A DNA stretch of 43,861 bases from a virus (lineage: Duplodnaviria > Caudoviricetes): positions 1 through 43,861 of the IMG/VR virus record IMGVR_UViG_3300046832_000271. One strand, 5' to 3'. Position 1 is the first letter of the stretch; every line of letters begins with the position of its first letter. Positions 713 to 37,543 of this stretch are shown here, piece by piece. The translations under genes were made by a program, and so were the position numbers. Under the pieces are notes generated by a model that saw only the letters and a program-made list of their open reading frames with translations, was not told the DNA's origin and ran no database searches.

Positions 713-1162
713 TTAATTACCTTTACCAAAGGATGTCGTAGATTTCTTCTCTGAGAAAAGAGGCATACGTGCATCACTTTGTTTTAAAAAGTTGTTGTCA
801 ACTGCATCGGCTTGTTGTTTTGCTTGTGAAGCATAATGAGCCTTACGTTGTGCAACAAACTCTTCGGGGATCTTGCAAAGTAATAAGCCACCAATTTCAA
901 TACCATCTTTAAAACGGCTGTTTTGGTCGACCATTAACTTCATTTCAGGGTGGTCCGCTAATTTAACGGGTTCCCATCCTTCACGCATTTTTGAAGAGAC
1001 ATTTAGATTATCAGCTTCGTTCATGACACTTGTACGAATCCAACGGTATGCCCAACCTGGTACCTTTTTAAATTCAGGTAATAGGGAGGCAGGTTTCCAG
1101 CTATCTGCACGTTGAAAATCATTTCTTGTATCTTGTTCTCGATCTAATCTTGTATTATCCAT
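713..1162 (-). CDS. Conserved head-module hypothetical protein
   Basis: 149 aa; GWAYRWIR...EGWEPV...GGLLLCKIP motifs typical of this phage head cluster. Confidence 0.7.
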   Translation of the reverse strand: MDNTRLDREQDTRNDFQRADSWKPASLLPEFKKVPGWAYRWIRTSVMNEADNLNVSSKMREGWEPVKLADHPEMKLMVDQNSRFKDGIEIGGLLLCKIPEEFVAQRKAHYASQAKQQADAVDNNFLKQSDARMPLFSEKKSTTSFGKGN

Positions 1163-2198
1163 TTGTGTTCTCCAATTTTAAAGTTTCTCTTGCATATTGC
1201 TCCGGTGTTAGACCAAATTTTTTGGCTAACGCTACTTGTGTCTTCGTCAATCGTACTTTTTTAGGCGCGGTACTACGCGTTGCCGGGGCAACTACAGTCG
1301 AAGGTTTCGTGCGCTGGGCGGGTTGGTCCTCGTCTAGCGTTGCATCCCCAAAGTATTCTGGGAATCGTTTCTGCATCGTACTATCTATACGACGGTAATA
1401 TTCGTCAGAGGTAGGACTGATCCCGCTTCTAACTAATTTTTCATGTACGCCTAATGCTAGGCTTGTCATTTCTTCATCTTTACCAAACCAGTCGTTATTA
1501 TCTTGCCAAGCGACTGCTTTATTGTCTGGTTTAAAAGATTGATTTTGATTTTGTTGTATATATACAGGATTTTCAGGTTCCTGTAAAGCATTTTTAAATC
1601 TAGGCTCATACTGTTGAGCTTGAGATAAACGCATTTGAGCATCATTCATGCGTTGCTGAGCGTTAATAATTTGGTCAGTTTCACCCGCATTATACGCCTC
1701 ACGATAATCTCGTTTAGCTAAATCTAATTGCTGTTCTAGCGAATTTTTAAGTGTTTCAATATAAGTCGATTCGCCAGAGCTTAAAGTAGTTTTTAACTTT
1801 TTATTTTCTTCCGCAATTTGCTGGGCAAATTTAATTGCTTCTTGTCTTTCACGATCAGCGGATTCTTTAGCACGTCTTTCGTCATGCCAAACTTTTTTAA
1901 GCTGCGCCATACGTTGTTTAACACGTTCAGAATAATCTTCTAATGTGTCATTTTCTAGTTCTTCGACTTTTTCTTTGGGTAAAGGTTCTTTGCCTCTATC
2001 CGCAGCTGGGATATCATCTTCAATTTCTAAATCAAAGTCGTCTTGCCTTGCTTCTTTAATAGCAGCTTTTGTTGTTTCATTTGGCTCTATTGGTTTTGGT
2101 TCTAGATCAATTTCTTTTTCATCAGATACTTTACTACCTGGTATTTCGTCATCATCTGGATATTCAAAAACAATATCTCCATCTTTTACGTCAGCCAT
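1155..2198 (-). CDS. Putative capsid scaffolding protein
   Basis: 347 aa; acidic N-terminus, long coiled coil, C-terminal LAKKFGLTPEQYA helix; between portal and capsid. Confidence 0.7.
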   Translation of the reverse strand: MADVKDGDIVFEYPDDDEIPGSKVSDEKEIDLEPKPIEPNETTKAAIKEARQDDFDLEIEDDIPAADRGKEPLPKEKVEELENDTLEDYSERVKQRMAQLKKVWHDERRAKESADRERQEAIKFAQQIAEENKKLKTTLSSGESTYIETLKNSLEQQLDLAKRDYREAYNAGETDQIINAQQRMNDAQMRLSQAQQYEPRFKNALQEPENPVYIQQNQNQSFKPDNKAVAWQDNNDWFGKDEEMTSLALGVHEKLVRSGISPTSDEYYRRIDSTMQKRFPEYFGDATLDEDQPAQRTKPSTVVAPATRSTAPKKVRLTKTQVALAKKFGLTPEQYARETLKLENTNG

Positions 2199-2208
2199 AT
2201 ATTACTCC

Positions 2209-2655
2209 TTATGCGCGAGTGTAGCCGCGAGGATCTGCAACAACCCCCTCAACTGTATCGTCGTTAATAATGCGGAATTCTCTTCCGTGGATTTTAAATC
2301 TTGTACCTGCGTATGCACGTGTCAAAACAAAATCACCCTCTTTACACCATGGACCCGTAGGAAATCTAACTTCATCTTTATAAGCTAGGTCACCTACTCT
2401 TACTACAAACAAAACTACGGTCGAATGTTCTTCTATAGTTCTAGTTGAATCTGCTTTTACAATACCGCCTTTATATGTTTCTGCCGCATCAGGAATTGCA
2501 CAAAGTATCTTGTATCCTTTAGGCTCAGGTAATTGTAATCCACGTTCTTCAATTGGTATATCTTCTGCATCTACTGCGTCTAGCGTTGGAATATTAATTG
2601 GTCGACCACTTGCATCTACCAAATTCTTATTCATCGTAAGGATTTGCTCACTCAT
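2209..2655 (-). CDS. GroES-like co-chaperonin
   Basis: PKGYKIL...GGIV...VGDLAY...KEGDFV...YAGT...EFRIINDDTVEGVV fits Cpn10 motifs; likely start MSEQ at 2655 after GGAG. Confidence 0.85.
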   Translation of the reverse strand: MSEQILTMNKNLVDASGRPINIPTLDAVDAEDIPIEERGLQLPEPKGYKILCAIPDAAETYKGGIVKADSTRTIEEHSTVVLFVVRVGDLAYKDEVRFPTGPWCKEGDFVLTRAYAGTRFKIHGREFRIINDDTVEGVVADPRGYTRA

Positions 2656-2842
2656 CTTCAAACGTCTCCATTCTTTGTGCGAGGTCTTTAATTAAACTTT
2701 CTGCTACGGATAAACCTCGAATATATCCGGTCATATTTTGGTACGAAGCAAAATCTTTTGCTGCTCCGTCTCCTAAATTATTTAAAACTGTTTTGCGCTG
2801 ATCATCTATTCGAGACAATAATAGCTCTAGCGTTTGGTCCAT
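2648..2842 (-). CDS. Hypothetical protein (64 aa)
   Basis: In-operon ORF between portal and GroES; GYIRGL motif. Confidence 0.7.
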   Translation of the reverse strand: MDQTLELLLSRIDDQRKTVLNNLGDGAAKDFASYQNMTGYIRGLSVAESLIKDLAQRMETFEDE

Positions 2843-13359: not shown

Positions 13360-13578
13360 ATGGCATTTATTAAGAATGACAAGGAAGCGTTGACCCATGC
13401 TTTGATACTAGGTATCACCGCGCCTAACGACAAGCTACAAGAGGTGATGGAGATAGCCCAAGTGATAGCCGATAAACTAAGTGATGAAGAGATAGAACAA
13501 TGTAAGAAAGAAGCAATCGCTTGGATCGATGAGCAAGAAATGAAGAAGCGTGACGAAGAAGAATCAACAATACATTAG
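13360..13578 (+). CDS. Hypothetical protein
   Basis: 72 aa; ALILGITAP motif; ends STIH. Confidence 0.7.
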   Translation: MAFIKNDKEALTHALILGITAPNDKLQEVMEIAQVIADKLSDEEIEQCKKEAIAWIDEQEMKKRDEEESTIH

Positions 13579-29601: not shown

Positions 29602-32600
29602 CTAGTCGCCGTATTCTTCGATGATTTGATTCTTAAGTTTCTTATTAAGATAAACGCCATCAACAGAGTTTTTAATTCTTTCCATATGACCGCGATAAGA
29701 TCTAGATAAAGTATCGGGAGAAATTTTGTTACTTGGGTATGACTCATTGTATCCTGCAATCTTGTCTTTAATTTCCGCTAACATATCATCATCACCATTA
29801 GACTTAGCTAAGAAATGTAGGTCTAGCAACGAAGTACGTCTCGAAGCAATTTTTTGTTCTGCTTTTTTCATAGATCCGGCTCTCGCGTAAGCTTCTGACA
29901 ATTCGGCATTAGTAAATCCAAAGATTTGCATGAATGCGCTGTATGCACTTACGTCATCAACAATAGGCGCTCCGTTAGTTGTTGTAGCTCCTTCAGTTGC
30001 AAAACGGAAAGCTTTCAGAGGATTACGTACGAAGGACGGCGTAACAGTTTCAAGACCTCTATATACTTGCCCTTCTTTCATAAGCGTAATTGCTCGGCCT
30101 GGGTTCACAAACAAAGCTTGATAGGATGGGCCAAAGAAGTGTTCTATGAAGTACGGAGCAAATCCAACCTCTGCTAAACGTCTTGGATCATCGTGCCATA
30201 CCATACCATTGAAACCTGTTCTCGATGCTATATCAATATTTGTTAACGCATTGATTGGGCCTTTGTAGCCGATGTCCCCCACTGCTGATCGAACTGCTTC
30301 GTCAAAGTCAAACGGCTCATCATCATCACCAAACATAGCTGAAACTGCCGATGCAAACATGTTAGCCGCGCCATAAGTTGGTAAGCCTTGAAGTCCAGAG
30401 AATGCATAAGTCATACCTAAAATACCAGTTAATTGTTTCTGTGCAAGTCTACGTATCTCAGGTTTTTCGCCTTTAAATGCTAGATAGAATAAGCGAGCCA
30501 TGTTATAAATCTGTGCTTGAGCAAAAGACTTAAACGTAAATGCAACCTTACCAAGACCGTTCTGGAACATACGAGGGCCAGCTTCTGATAATGCATGTGA
30601 ATGTGTACGAGTTGTCATATCGATAGCTTCATCAATCGCAGCTTGTTCAGATAAACCATTTTCCCTAGCTAAATTAAATGCAGCAATTAATGTTACTTCT
30701 CTATTCATTCTTTCAGAATTCTGGAATATCCAACCTAAGCCAGTTTCAACCTTAGCTCTAGTACCTGTAAATTCTTCAGTAGTTCTACGTCTCATTTCTG
30801 TAAGTTCATAGCCTACACTGCGACGAATAGTAGAACGACTGACGGCATTGTGATACAAGTTATAATATTTATCTCCGGGTTTTAAATTAGCACCGAAAGT
30901 AAAATCAGGTAAGAACTTACGATTGACGTCTAAGCCGCCTTTAGTATATTGTGAGTATGCTTCTTTTAACATAGCACTTGCTTTAGTCCAGCCATATTTA
31001 CCACCGAGCATAGGAAGCACTACCATAGGAACTTGAGTTAAGTTGACTACAGCAGAAGATACGTTGCCTGCAATATGCCACATATAACTAAACCAGCTAG
31101 CTCTTGAAGAGATACTGTCAGCTACAGGGTTGTCAAGGAATTTTCTTTGGTCAATTAAGTTTTGAACGACTTGAGTAACAGGCACATTATCTTTTAAGTC
31201 TGGATTGGTTAACCTAAAATCAGCTTCATTCTTTTTAACTTCTGCCATAGCTTTATCAAGTAATGGTTTATACTCAAGATTAGAAACTTGATGGGCTAAT
31301 TTAGAACCTACATCCGCATATCCACCTACAACATCTTTAATATAACCTTCAATACCTTGACGAGTACGCATTTGTTGGCGTAAGGATTCATCAGGGAATG
31401 TGTCTAGGTAAGTCTTATAGACTTCATTAATTAAGCTTTCTTTGGCGGCAATAGAATCAGGATCATTAATATCTGCATCTATATTTTGATCTAACAAATC
31501 AATAATGCCTTTTACAAAACCTAATGGAGGCGTGTCTTTATAGTTTAATTCTCTTGTAAGTAGGCTAGTTGATATATCTTGACCATTAGCTTTTTGGGCT
31601 TCTTTAACTGCGATAGCTAATTCAGCCGGAGATTCTTTATGAATTACAACGCGCTCGCCATCTTTATCAAAGTAAGCTAATCTATAATTACCTTTACGTC
31701 TTAATGGCAAGTAGAATGAAATCTTTTCTTGTTCAAACCTTGTTCTTAATTGATCTGCAATAGATTTACCCGCAAAGAGTTCTACTTGTTTAATCATAGT
31801 CTCTCTAGCTTCGCCAAAAGCATCGGAGTATTCATAAGCTAAATTTTGTAATTCTTTAGGAGTATTATTCCACGCAGCCATTAATTGATCATCCCAATTA
31901 TCTTGTTCGTTTTTACCTTTTTTAGGATTAATACGAAGCGCTGTTAATTTATGTGCAACATCATTAAATTTATCTACCACTGGTTTAGGATATTTTTTAA
32001 GTAACTCAAACCCTTTAAATACTCTAGCGTCAACTTCTTGTCTGTATTGTTGTAATGCTCCAGCACGTTTATTAATAATATCTAATAGGTCATTAAGAGC
32101 AGGGAGTTCTTTGCCAAATAAATCTGCTTGTTGAGGTAATGATAAGAATGAAAGACCAATAGCTCTAAGTCTATCTGGGATTGTAGAATAAACATTTCTT
32201 ACATCTTGTGCTAATCTTGAGTTATATATAGGCGTGCTTTTAATTGTATTACCTACAGAGTCCATAATGCCACTAGAATTTTGTGGATCAACGGTAGTAG
32301 TAGGACCTACTTTAGCCATTTGAACTGCAGGCACACCTGCTGCCTCCGCTGCTGGCGCAGCACCTCTTAACGAGGTACGCAATGAATGCAGAATCATATC
32401 TTGTAGGTCTGCAGTAGTAAATTTGTTAGGGTTGTATAAACCCATTTTAATTAGGAAATTTTTTACAGCACCCACTACACGACGAAAAATAGTGTTCTCT
32501 GGCGAAGTTTCACCAATCCGTGCAAGCACTTCTCTTAAATAAGATTCAGAACCAGGTTTTAATTCAGGATACAAATTAGTCACGTGGTCATGTGCGGCAG

Positions 32601-34848
32601 TGACAACCGGGTCCATTTTGTTTAATTGGTTAACTTGGCGTAAGGTTTGTTTATACATGGATTTACCAAGCATGCCTTCGAGCCCATGATGTTCTCCAAC
32701 TTCGTGTAACAAGGTACGTCTAGCATTTGCCGAAGTCATTCGATTAGCAATGATGTAAGACTTGCCTTTTGAGTAAGCACCTACTGCGTTGGGTTGGATA
32801 CTAGATTGTATCTCGGCAGGTAATTGGTCTACTGAGTCTACGATGTTTAGAAGACCGCGCTTCTGTGCGGTTAATATGTTATTACCAAATTCTTTTTTTA
32901 AAGTATCAGTAATAGTCTGCGCAGTTTCTTGTGTTGTAGGTACGGCTTGACGAGATTCTTGGGTAATTGAGGGCTCTACTTTAGGCGCATAAATGACAGA
33001 CCCATATGCAGTATTATCTAAGTCTGGAATTCCTCTGACATCAACCCCTTCATAACCAAGCTTTTTCATTACTTCAGTAGCGGCGGTAGGAACATACTCA
33101 TTTGTATGTATTACTTTTTCTACATTAGGCGCAGTCTTTTTAACTTCTTCTTCAATAAGACTTTTAATTTTTCCGTATTGACCTAAGCCAAGACTCTCAC
33201 TAAGTCTTGAAGCAGCTTTGTCATATAAACTATTTATATTTTCTTTAGCCCCAAAATATCCTTCCCATTCAGTTTTACCTTGGGCTAATTTAGTAACAGC
33301 ATCATTTATATCTTTTAAACCGTCGTGTAATTTAAATGCATCTTTTCTTGTTTCAGGTTTAGCCAAATTATATTTAGAGAAATCTATTTTCTCAACAGGC
33401 CTTTCAGCTTTTAATGAGGTTCCCAATACTTCAGGGCTCCCTACAAAATAAACTCCTGTGCCAAAATGACCTGTACTTCTACCTGAGGACATCCTACCTA
33501 ATGTAGTGTCAAATCCATACCCTAAATCCCCTGCATGATACCCTACATTTTCTTCTAATGCAGTGGGCTGTTGCGCTTCTCGTCCATTAGTTGGTTCAAC
33601 ATCAGTTGTAACCCCAGGAGCTCTAACTCCGAGATCTTCTGTAGTTCCTGTGGGAAGTCCTGGCTCATTGGGTCGTCCAGGTACTTGAAGAGTTTCTCCA
33701 ACTCTTGCGGTGTCAACTTCTCCAGCTCTGGTGATTGGAAGTCCATCTTGTGTCCTCATCTCCTGCACAGCAGGTTCTCTTTTTATTCCTACTATATCAG
33801 ATTCAGGTGTAGGTTCAGGTATTGGAATAGGTTGTGCTTGCGCTTGGGCTCTTTCACTTAGTCTTTCAGGTATAGCTGTAACAGCACCGAATGCGCCCCC
33901 AGCTATCGCACCACGTATACTAGATTCTAGTATGCGATTCCAGCCCTCTGAGTTAAATAACCCAGCATTCTTGTTAATAAAGTTTTCTGCTTTTAAACTA
34001 ATCGCTTCTTGTGCACCTTCAGTTAAACCTTCTAATGCAATAGACTCAGGTACGGCAGCTGTAATCTTACGAAGTAAACTTGGCTCCATGCCAGACTTCT
34101 CTAATACTTTTTCTACCAAGCCAATCTTAGCAGGCTTAGTTAATTTATTCATGATCGCTGCAGGGAACGCAGAATCTAGTCCAGCACTAATAGAACTAAA
34201 TAACAATGCAGCAGCAGGTTCTAATTGACCAGAGGTGTCGTATATGTTTTGAAATACTTCAGGAGCGTTTTGAGAGTATGAACCTAGATAGACACCTAAG
34301 TTTTGACCGAGTGCTTGACGGCTTGCTACTAATTCAGCAGCTTCTTTTGTACCTAGACCCGCAGCTTCAGCAGCACCCATTGCCGCACGGCGGCCAACCA
34401 TAGCACCTACGCCACCTGGTATTAACGCTGTTGCTAAATTAGGAATTTGTTCGCCAATAGTTTCTACGCCGTATTGTAGAGCACTACCTAATCCTTGAAC
34501 GTCTTTATACGAAGGAACACCGGGCGCATACTTACGCGCAATCTCTTCTTGAGTGCCCGCCGCTTCTTCCATTTGGCGTTTAGCATAGTCATCAAAACCT
34601 AATGCCGTTGCACCAATGGCGGGGATAATATCACCAAACGCTGAACTTACTTGCTTACCACCACGAACGACAGAGCGTTTAAAAGCTTCACCCATAGATA
34701 AATCAGGTAGTACAGGTTCTTCTGCTCGTTTTCTTTTTGTTTCTAAATATGCGGGAAGTTCGGTTTCAATTGCATTTGCAATTTGGTCTTGGGTCATACC
34801 ATCAGGAAAATCGATGGGCCCTATACCAGTTACATTTATACGAGGCAT
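29602..34848 (-). CDS. Large polyvalent / internal virion protein (ART-like, zincin and large C-terminal helical domains)
   Basis: N-terminal FPDGM motif; GYHAG...FGTGVYF...GYEGV ART-like segment; LLHEVGEHHG metallopeptidase-like motif; last gene of ejection-protein cluster. Confidence 0.8.
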   Translation of the reverse strand: MPRINVTGIGPIDFPDGMTQDQIANAIETELPAYLETKRKRAEEPVLPDLSMGEAFKRSVVRGGKQVSSAFGDIIPAIGATALGFDDYAKRQMEEAAGTQEEIARKYAPGVPSYKDVQGLGSALQYGVETIGEQIPNLATALIPGGVGAMVGRRAAMGAAEAAGLGTKEAAELVASRQALGQNLGVYLGSYSQNAPEVFQNIYDTSGQLEPAAALLFSSISAGLDSAFPAAIMNKLTKPAKIGLVEKVLEKSGMEPSLLRKITAAVPESIALEGLTEGAQEAISLKAENFINKNAGLFNSEGWNRILESSIRGAIAGGAFGAVTAIPERLSERAQAQAQPIPIPEPTPESDIVGIKREPAVQEMRTQDGLPITRAGEVDTARVGETLQVPGRPNEPGLPTGTTEDLGVRAPGVTTDVEPTNGREAQQPTALEENVGYHAGDLGYGFDTTLGRMSSGRSTGHFGTGVYFVGSPEVLGTSLKAERPVEKIDFSKYNLAKPETRKDAFKLHDGLKDINDAVTKLAQGKTEWEGYFGAKENINSLYDKAASRLSESLGLGQYGKIKSLIEEEVKKTAPNVEKVIHTNEYVPTAATEVMKKLGYEGVDVRGIPDLDNTAYGSVIYAPKVEPSITQESRQAVPTTQETAQTITDTLKKEFGNNILTAQKRGLLNIVDSVDQLPAEIQSSIQPNAVGAYSKGKSYIIANRMTSANARRTLLHEVGEHHGLEGMLGKSMYKQTLRQVNQLNKMDPVVTAAHDHVTNLYPELKPGSESYLREVLARIGETSPENTIFRRVVGAVKNFLIKMGLYNPNKFTTADLQDMILHSLRTSLRGAAPAAEAAGVPAVQMAKVGPTTTVDPQNSSGIMDSVGNTIKSTPIYNSRLAQDVRNVYSTIPDRLRAIGLSFLSLPQQADLFGKELPALNDLLDIINKRAGALQQYRQEVDARVFKGFELLKKYPKPVVDKFNDVAHKLTALRINPKKGKNEQDNWDDQLMAAWNNTPKELQNLAYEYSDAFGEARETMIKQVELFAGKSIADQLRTRFEQEKISFYLPLRRKGNYRLAYFDKDGERVVIHKESPAELAIAVKEAQKANGQDISTSLLTRELNYKDTPPLGFVKGIIDLLDQNIDADINDPDSIAAKESLINEVYKTYLDTFPDESLRQQMRTRQGIEGYIKDVVGGYADVGSKLAHQVSNLEYKPLLDKAMAEVKKNEADFRLTNPDLKDNVPVTQVVQNLIDQRKFLDNPVADSISSRASWFSYMWHIAGNVSSAVVNLTQVPMVVLPMLGGKYGWTKASAMLKEAYSQYTKGGLDVNRKFLPDFTFGANLKPGDKYYNLYHNAVSRSTIRRSVGYELTEMRRRTTEEFTGTRAKVETGLGWIFQNSERMNREVTLIAAFNLARENGLSEQAAIDEAIDMTTRTHSHALSEAGPRMFQNGLGKVAFTFKSFAQAQIYNMARLFYLAFKGEKPEIRRLAQKQLTGILGMTYAFSGLQGLPTYGAANMFASAVSAMFGDDDEPFDFDEAVRSAVGDIGYKGPINALTNIDIASRTGFNGMVWHDDPRRLAEVGFAPYFIEHFFGPSYQALFVNPGRAITLMKEGQVYRGLETVTPSFVRNPLKAFRFATEGATTTNGAPIVDDVSAYSAFMQIFGFTNAELSEAYARAGSMKKAEQKIASRRTSLLDLHFLAKSNGDDDMLAEIKDKIAGYNESYPSNKISPDTLSRSYRGHMERIKNSVDGVYLNKKLKNQIIEEYGD
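33555..33746 (-). CDS. Overprinted nested gene (+1 frame), 63-aa acidic helical protein
   Basis: GAGGA RBS 7 nt before ATG; amphipathic L/E-rich sequence; host frame here is a disordered G/R/P/T linker. Confidence 0.6.
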   Translation of the reverse strand: MDFQSPELEKLTPQELEKLFKYLDDPMSQDFPQELQKISELELLGLQLMLNQLMDEKRNSPLH

Positions 34849-36430: not shown

Positions 36431-37543
36431 TTATCCTTTACCTAATACGTTCGCTAAACCAAGTCCTGCTAAACCTAAACCACCAATTTGAGATATGGTT
36501 GAAGGTTGTGGCGTATATTGAACTTGAGTTGAACCCAATGCTGCGGCATTACCACGAAGAATATTACTGAGGTATTCAAGTTGTTGTTTTTGATAGTTCT
36601 GTTGTTCTTGGAATGTTTGATATTTAAGATCATTAATTTGTTGTTGAAGTGCTTGTTTTTCACCTTCAGTAGCAGCTTGTGCTTTAAGTCTTTCAAGGTT
36701 AGCAGTCTGTGTAGCTGCAGCAACAGCGGCTTGTTTACCTGATGCATCAATACCTGTAGTAAGACCTGCAAGTCCAATATCTTTACCAAGACCTGCTTGA
36801 TATTGTTGAGCTTGTTGACCGAGTTGTGCTGCTTGCATACGACGTGCTTGATCACGTTCAAATTGTTGTTGAGCACTTTGAAAGGCAGATTCTTGTCCTT
36901 TAGCTCTAATATCACCAATATTTAAGTTAGCGCCTCTTTCTTGTTCAGCTTGTAATAAAGCTTGACGGGCTCCGCCAAATGTACCGCGACCAATAGATCC
37001 TAATGCGCCTGCTGATTTAGCTAAGTCTCTTTGTTTTTCAGCTTCACGAACTGCAATGTCTGTAACGCCTGTTTGATACGGAGACATATAATATGAAGCT
37101 GCAGGAGCATCAAATGTTCCGCCCGAAATAGCCATAGGGTTATAACCAAACGCTTGACTTAAACCTGTAGCACCCGCACCAAAACCTAAAGTTTGGCCAG
37201 CACCTAATCCTGTAGCAGCTGTACCAAAACCACCTGGCAATGTTAAGCCGCTTACTTCTCTTTGTATAGCTTCTTGTCCTGGAGTAAATCCTGCAATTCT
37301 ATCACCCCCATAAGTAGGCATTGGTTTAACACCCGTAACATTACCTGCTGCATCAGTAGCATAAACATTTTTACCTGTTTGCTTCATTAACTCTTGGTAG
37401 TATGGCTGTGCGTATTCAGGTAAGTTTGTAGAATACGATGTAGAAGTTTGTGGGCCACCACCGCCACCACCTGAGCTACCACCGTAAAAGGTAAATGCTT
37501 CTACTAGGTTAGTTACCCAGTTAAACAAGTTAAATAATTTCAT
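36431..37543 (-). CDS. Putative DNA transfer/pilot (ejection) protein
   Basis: Gly/Gln/Ala-rich; poly-Gly after short leader; FGGARQ motif; C-terminal GLGLAGLG. Confidence 0.7.
   Translation of the reverse strand: MKLFNLFNWVTNLVEAFTFYGGSSGGGGGGPQTSTSYSTNLPEYAQPYYQELMKQTGKNVYATDAAGNVTGVKPMPTYGGDRIAGFTPGQEAIQREVSGLTLPGGFGTAATGLGAGQTLGFGAGATGLSQAFGYNPMAISGGTFDAPAASYYMSPYQTGVTDIAVREAEKQRDLAKSAGALGSIGRGTFGGARQALLQAEQERGANLNIGDIRAKGQESAFQSAQQQFERDQARRMQAAQLGQQAQQYQAGLGKDIGLAGLTTGIDASGKQAAVAAATQTANLERLKAQAATEGEKQALQQQINDLKYQTFQEQQNYQKQQLEYLSNILRGNAAALGSTQVQYTPQPSTISQIGGLGLAGLGLANVLGKG

Follow-up and report, generated by a model that had tools for sequence, protein, structure and literature searches.

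Evidence for a gene nested in the linker of a giant phage virion protein, and for a possible Lon-recognition tail on its product

Phage genes that lie wholly inside another gene on the same strand, in its +1 frame and with a start of their own, are known from Rz1 within Rz of phage lambda and from E within D of phiX174, that is, from lysis genes or tiny genomes. The bacterial protease Lon has phage-encoded inhibitors, PinA of phage T4 being one. More recently, Lon has been described as an anti-phage factor that the phage protein Dap2 inhibits, protecting a packaging endonuclease (PMC13083879). A terminal histidine after a hydrophobic residue acts as an autonomous Lon degron, the motif being x-L/I-L/I/V-H, with several proven degrons deviating at the antepenultimate position (PMC11986505). 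In LarA, an activator of Lon, the terminal His and the penultimate Val fit into a conserved pocket in the N-domain of Lon, and a helix followed by a short free stretch leads up to them (PMC10665427, PMC11882793). The subject here is a short open reading frame (ORF) in a tailed-phage genome, IMG/VR virus record IMGVR_UViG_3300046832_000271 (Duplodnaviria; Caudoviricetes), of which positions 1 to 43,861 were analysed; this whole stretch of 43,861 nucleotides (nt) is called the window. The ORF lies in the +1 frame of a gene for a 1748-residue polyvalent protein (the enclosing gene), is almost certainly a real gene judging from its conservation, and encodes a small acidic protein whose conserved C-terminal tail might be recognised by Lon.

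The decisive evidence for the gene is comparative. Eighty viral loci carrying the enclosing protein's N-terminal domain (the best 80 of 132) were fetched, and all their +1 and +2 shadow segments were scanned with a profile of the nested peptide. Sixty-five of the 80 hold a homologue, every one in +1, a count that takes in redundant copies, two that are truncated at contig ends and an aberrant one in locus L034; the 15 misses consist of five cut contigs and ten loci that are full-length or nearly so. With three loci added from a search with the peptide itself, the carriers number 68 of 83. Selection was read from 15 non-overlapping close pairs in gap-free alignment (30 of 55 sequences). Counted by successive codon positions of the enclosing gene, the overlap has 227/109/60 substitutions and the flank upstream of it 130/87/311 (chi-square p 1e-40); those in the overlap concentrate at the silent position of the nested frame. 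Changes that alter the enclosing protein are silent in the nested frame in 228 of 334 cases, and the ratio of non-synonymous to synonymous differences (pN/pS) of the nested frame is ~0.33, uncorrected (binomial p 7e-23). The matching figure for the enclosing frame in the overlap is 1.4, and this frame therefore shows no constraint there. Between the window and its close relative L002, 13 sites differ, none altering the nested protein and 12 altering the enclosing one, and three further pairs show the same substitution pattern; the L066/L069 pair has a single difference, which alters a nested residue only.

The initiation signals are conserved as well. A four-base Shine-Dalgarno (SD) match precedes all 53 starts counted and 5.7% of 8023 other +1 ATG or GTG codons, and a five-base match precedes 39 of the 53 against 84 (1.0%) of the others; the SD partly guided the choice of starts, and two members that lack a clear one are excluded from this count. 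The nested gene is very likely translated from its own ribosome-binding site. The overprinting proposed by the first-pass annotation is thus strongly supported: the homologues in which it had suggested looking, from dozens of aquatic relatives, conserve both the frame and the ribosome-binding site, and in them the nested frame is under purifying selection.

Composition within the window is secondary to this evidence. The 63-residue sequence quoted by the first-pass annotation is exact, as is its placement in the enclosing gene; its coordinates, 33555..33760, include the leader, and the ORF itself occupies 33555-33746. The GAGGA reported just upstream of the ATG is present (Table 1), an in-frame TGA at 33756-33758, three codons upstream of the ATG, closes the +1 frame, and the nested stop, described as lying shortly before the GYHAG motif of the enclosing protein, precedes it by five codons. 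The nested frame had also been called acidic, unlike other shadow frames, and among the ten ATG-started +1 ORFs of at least 55 residues in the 23 window genes it is the only acidic one, with an Asp plus Glu content of 0.21 against at most 0.08 in the others. Synonymous recoding of the enclosing gene yields a mean of 3.9 acidic residues in the nested frame, and the observed 13 were reached in 0 of 200,000 recodings. GGA supplies eight of the nine Gly codons of the enclosing frame in the overlap, against a fraction of 0.167 elsewhere (p ~5e-6). The length of the ORF is by itself no evidence, since ten such +1 ORFs are seen where the same recoding null, over the 23 genes, gives 2.0.

The enclosing protein is built from a conserved N-terminal domain, a linker, a variable slot, a zincin-like region with the motif HEVGEH and a C-terminus related to PLxRFG/DarB-like proteins. 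The nested gene keeps a constant position in this order, after the N-terminal domain and ahead of the variable slot, and persists with differing N-terminal, middle and C-terminal parts. An independent search seeded with P0143, a protein of the family, yielded 11 metagenome loci, every one with the nested gene at +1 in a long ORF, and two of the three enclosing proteins scanned there end in LPD38 C-termini. The family profile matches 437 clusters at 50% identity (E <=0.001); ten of them were looked up and, where a functional name is given, it is 'hypothetical protein'. Gene callers normally discard nested frames, which explains how a family of at least 437 clusters is nameless in Pfam, PHROGs, NCBIfam and PADLOC. 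It is conserved across loci of 36-59% guanine plus cytosine (GC), and in a tree of the N-terminal domain made by a quick method, carriers sit on most branches and absences are scattered. A family peptide searched against cultured phages has no match there, and HTVC027P holds no nested homologue at positions 20,000-57,595. Free-standing copies were not found among the loci examined, which show the surroundings of only a minority of the 437 clusters; a search with the marine member P0231 gave no locus. Two variants of the family arrangement were seen. In L034 (6910-7044) the nested copy begins normally, diverges after ~22 residues and is without the tail, and the enclosing ORF ends at 981 residues; this copy may reflect a deletion, a misassembly or decay. 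P0216 and P0244 match the family profile in two stretches, suggesting tandem copies of the hairpin described below.

Members of the family have 55-65 residues and a median net charge of ~-6. The model of the window peptide (mean predicted local distance difference test, pLDDT, 84.5) has helices at residues 13-24, 33-36 and 40-59 and a free four-residue tail; the predicted hairpin is amphipathic with conserved hydrophobic faces, and an invariant Glu stands ~8 residues from the family C-terminus. No informative sequence match was found in Pfam, PHROGs, NCBIfam, PADLOC or PDB sequences, and no informative fold match in the ESM Atlas, Foldseek PDB, BFVD or VIA-wide (best Z 4.7, generic helices), results that do not show a new fold. 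Rz1-type o-spanins carry a lipoprotein signal with its Cys and are nested in an i-spanin gene. The window peptide has no Cys, the residue makes up 0.2% of the family, and the enclosing protein is a polyvalent protein. The tail is the most distinctive part of the family: the ending [LVI][HQN]-stop closes 53 of 57 distinct family ORFs, and of 1429 other +1 segments 56 have it. In the top 150 of the 437 profile hits the last residue is His in 107, Gln in 39 and Asn in 4; Leu, Val or Ile precedes it in 147, and 99 have Ser at position -4. The overlapping residues of the enclosing protein vary, so this tail is not imposed by the enclosing frame. Elsewhere in the window, a free-standing 72-residue ORF (13360-13578, plus strand) without a Pfam match has at its end a probable helix and then S-T-I-H-stop, which is the tail pattern of the nested family and a single case among the 56 window ORFs checked.

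Two features of the Lon degron are therefore present, a terminal His (in the window and in the 107 hits) and a penultimate Leu, Ile or Val. The modelled peptide, with a helix followed by a free tail, also has a layout like that of LarA. Persistence of the nested gene across exchanged parts of the enclosing protein favours a target outside that protein. Taken by analogy with these proteins, recognition of the nested protein by Lon has a probability only a little short of even. In the mechanism that would build on it, internal initiation on the late virion-gene message would produce the nested protein, the conserved tail of its acidic helical hairpin would dock on the Lon of the bacterial host, and the protein would occupy Lon as a decoy or modulator, with the putative outcome that late, linker-rich virion proteins are spared degradation. 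This complete scheme of a late-made Lon decoy or modulator shielding late phage proteins is the favoured explanation, but is offered only tentatively.

Several observations weigh against it. The gene is dispensable, because the ten full-length or nearly full-length loci found with the N-terminal domain are without a copy, and no copy was found in six of six distant genome loci. Conservation of the tail is inflated by the way the 150 hits were ranked, since the tail is itself part of the profile. The strict motif x-L/I-L/I/V-H is not satisfied at position -3, which is Leu, Ile or Val in only 22 of the 150 hits and Pro in 50, as in the window. The exchanges at the last residue also fit poorly: half-lives with Yersinia Lon are ~400 min for Gln and Asn endings versus 152 min for His, with Val and Pro next best (PMC11986505 Table S1). 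The family swaps His for Gln or Asn and not for Val or Pro, the assayed Lon being that of Yersinia; His to Gln is, however, the cheapest change within this overlap. A degron could, moreover, merely shorten the life of the protein.

These same exchanges lend some weight to the alternative that the tail binds a host protein other than Lon, the hairpin being a host-takeover or counter-defence factor. Tolerance of His, Gln and Asn departs from the preferences of Yersinia Lon, and the Ser at -4 together with the invariant Glu suggests a longer specific motif on an acidic protein; searches turned up neither a candidate partner nor a matching family or fold, and this alternative is judged unlikely, with perhaps the best claim among the alternatives. 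Also unlikely is a short-lived chaperone, co-translated with the giant protein (for example with a membrane-active N-terminal domain) or serving another virion protein, for which the tail would be a disposal tag used before packaging. Such a protein would be made beside its client, as the constant place in the same gene would ensure, and an amphipathic hairpin with conserved hydrophobic faces would suit it. The gene is kept, however, in enclosing proteins that have an LPD38-type C-terminus and an N-terminus undetected by the window-type profile, and it is missing from 10 of the 75 uncut loci found with the N-terminal domain.

Less probable again is that the nested protein activates Lon or serves it as an adaptor, like LarA or NblA in function, so that, once the tail has docked, a host target is handed over or exposed by the hairpin for destruction late in infection. 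The tail evidence applies to this reading equally, LarA activates Lon through such a tail, and cyanophage NblA is a small adaptor whose gene partly overlaps its neighbours (PMC12695635). Against this, a Pfam search with 54 members at E 0.1 hit neither the LarA family (DUF1150) nor NblA, the nested-protein model is all-helical whereas LarA contains a four-stranded sheet, and a more active Lon could be expected to harm late phage proteins.

The first-pass annotation had proposed that the nested protein inhibits or chaperones the neighbouring domain of the enclosing protein, described as ART-like (for ADP-ribosyltransferase) and called here the GYHAG domain. The label itself stands in part. The GYHAG domain has a confidently predicted fold (pLDDT 90); His6 and Tyr35 are invariant in 17 sequences and both lie in predicted strands, as the strand-1 His and strand-2 Tyr of such ARTs do; Asp171 and Asp179, invariant too, are candidates for the Asp of strand 5. 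Invariant His, Tyr and Asp residues agree with the H-Y-D triad that PMC5512222 describes for polyvalent ARTs. In the ESM Atlas the nearest clusters are ART-PolyVal (score 0.92), with PF18760 on 22-35% of cluster members. None of the 17 members matches Pfam PF18760 at E <=1, Foldseek against PDB gives no match at E 0.001, and a profile comparison with three ART-PolyVal domains (probability 2%) is uninformative. The domain is plausibly a divergent H-Y-x ART, a fair lead and not a confirmed assignment.

The proposed partnership is largely refuted by poor co-occurrence. GYHAG is present in 3 of the 68 carriers of the nested gene. Conversely, among 19 GYHAG loci the nested gene is adjacent in three (the window, L104 and L111), lies 303 and 420 codons off in two, and is not seen in 14, about five of which start right where the fetched DNA ends. 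Among the closest relatives, peptide identity stays at 87-100% and slot content differs: ART-PolyVal in L004 and L005, another domain in L006, and in L002 and L003 nothing that Pfam recognises; in L002, where the peptide is 100% identical, Pfam finds no enzyme domain in the following 600 residues. Co-occurrence with the downstream domain, which had been proposed as a check, therefore fails as slot content changes beside a nearly constant peptide. The adjacency in the window is explained by the hypervariable slot starting right after the linker. The enclosing proteins of L008 and L013 have N- and C-termini of other types than the one in the window, and their GYHAG domain is 86-88% identical to the one there, a sign of recent slot exchange. 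By this distribution the nested gene is not the immunity partner of the GYHAG domain, and the proposal as a whole, be it of a dedicated inhibitor of that domain or of a promiscuous antidote for any slot effector, to which direct adjacency in three loci, ART-PolyVal in the slot of two close relatives and a labile tail suited to an antitoxin lend something, is very improbable. As a separate occurrence of the domain, a 321-residue ORF in a 343-kb viral contig (L113, 4935-5899) carries GYHAG near its start and not behind a long N-terminal part.

Two readings that deny the gene independent translation or existence fare worse. Production only by programmed frameshifting, as a tail on a truncated enclosing protein or a leader fused to the downstream domain, is suggested by open +1 stretches of up to 115 codons upstream in some copies; independent initiation is favoured over it because the upstream +1 stop lies a median of 9 codons from the start and a slippery heptamer occurs in 5 of 53 copies, and with SD and start conserved in phase it is highly improbable. 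That the ORF is a composition shadow of a Gly/Pro/Thr linker, as the frequency of long +1 shadow ORFs in this genome might suggest, has next to no chance given selection on the nested rather than the enclosing frame, the SD enrichment and conservation over so wide a GC range.

The Lon reading, put at its broadest, would be of a large unannotated family of Lon modulators in the linkers of giant ejection proteins of abundant aquatic phages, where each message makes its own protease bodyguard and the linker is mainly coding space for a hidden gene; this picture is doubtful, and is given as a speculation.

The record is ~70% complete and includes genes for a portal, a terminase, a family A polymerase, an SNF2 helicase and a primase. 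Its portal is 38-43% identical to the best matches among cultured phages, HTVC027P, HTVC023P, DSL-LC04 and CRP-901/902, and the enclosing protein's N-terminal domain has no match among cultured phages. The PHROG 'DNA ejection protein' label of an upstream gene (Table 1) places the enclosing gene in a virion block, which from such labels is probably late and virion-bound. The HEVGEH motif of the enclosing protein may be set beside the HEXXXH peptidase variant described for polyvalent proteins (PMC5512222). A scan for promoters and terminators gave site counts no higher than those in shuffles. One site, an 11/12 sigma-70-like match at 33367-33395 (minus strand), lies within the GYHAG coding region and faces the zincin and C-terminal parts, overall site counts equalling those of shuffles. 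In the head block, a GroES-like gene (Pfam Cpn10; 2209-2661, minus strand) corresponds to gp55 of HTVC027P. Among the 23 genes, codon usage is most atypical at codons ~241-345 of the gene at 1155-2198 (minus strand), where z falls as low as -5.2; a further overlap or some other constraint may lie behind it.

Table 1. Positions of the nested gene, the parts of the enclosing gene and a neighbouring gene in the window
Feature	Positions	Strand	Basis or remark
Nested +1-frame gene, 63 residues, acidic; predicted helical hairpin	33555..33746	minus	codons 368-431 of the enclosing gene
Shine-Dalgarno-like GAGGA (33753-33757), ending 6 nt before the ATG; AGGAG 13 nt before	33753..33764	minus	sequence
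C-terminal tail S-P-L-H-stop	33555..33569	minus	family consensus S-x-[LVI]-[HQN]-stop
Enclosing gene, 1748 residues, polyvalent virion/ejection-type	29602..34848	minus	PHROG: DarB-like C-terminus; virion structural protein plus virion RNA polymerase-like N-terminus
Conserved N-terminal domain of the enclosing protein, residues 48-329, upstream of the linker	33862..34707	minus	used to fetch the 80 loci
Exchangeable GYHAG domain, residues 433-626, in the variable slot	32971..33552	minus	probable ADP-ribosyltransferase, divergent, H-Y-x
Zincin-like metallopeptidase region, HEVGEH motif, residues 646-828	32365..32913	minus	sequence
C-terminal region of the enclosing protein, residues 1032-1744, related to PLxRFG/DarB-like proteins of cultured phages	29617..31755	minus	homology
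PHROG 'DNA ejection protein' gene, same strand block, two genes upstream of the enclosing gene	36431..37543	minus	phrog_4287, E 1.2e-8

Among described systems, the polyvalent proteins with ART and zincin domains (PMC5512222) share with the enclosing gene its architecture, the exchangeable effector slot and the HEXXXH peptidase; the main text of that report has no hit for 'overlapping' and gives no nested gene. A literature search, covering few subscription papers, found no paper on the family or on nested genes in the linkers of polyvalent proteins. SulA, Smg and Y2853 (PMC11986505) and LarA (PMC10665427, PMC11882793) resemble the nested family in being small and in presenting a free C-terminal hydrophobic-His pair after a helix. 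The nested family differs from them in a position -3 that is mostly Pro or polar, in its common Gln and Asn ends and in being phage-encoded and nested, and has no relation in sequence or fold to LarA. The role proposed here is that described for Dap2 of Pseudomonas phage PaoP5, inhibition of Lon that protects a late phage protein (PMC13083879). Dap2 lies beside dap1, apparently not in the linker of a virion protein, and with Lon action putative here the two are likened by proposed role and not by homology. Cyanophage NblA (PMC12695635) is likewise a small, under-annotated phage family with overlapping genes and a tie to host proteolysis; it differs in overlapping its neighbours only partially (<=110 nt) and in being host-derived, and no Pfam NblA match was found here. 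If action on Lon is true, the family would add a widespread phage strategy against a protease recently shown to be an anti-phage factor.

Like Rz1 and E of phiX174, the nested gene is small, lies wholly inside another gene in the +1 frame and has its own start. Unlike them, it sits in the gene of a virion protein of 1,700-2,200 residues whose linker gave up constraint, and its product has neither a lipoprotein Cys nor a membrane helix. Nested +1 phage genes as such are already known from those two cases; what is new here is the protein family and its place in the linker of a giant virion protein. The locus offers a clean case in a double-stranded DNA phage of 44 kb or more, in which selection is carried by the nested and not the enclosing frame, and in which the arrangement has outlived exchange of both ends and the middle of the protein that encloses it.

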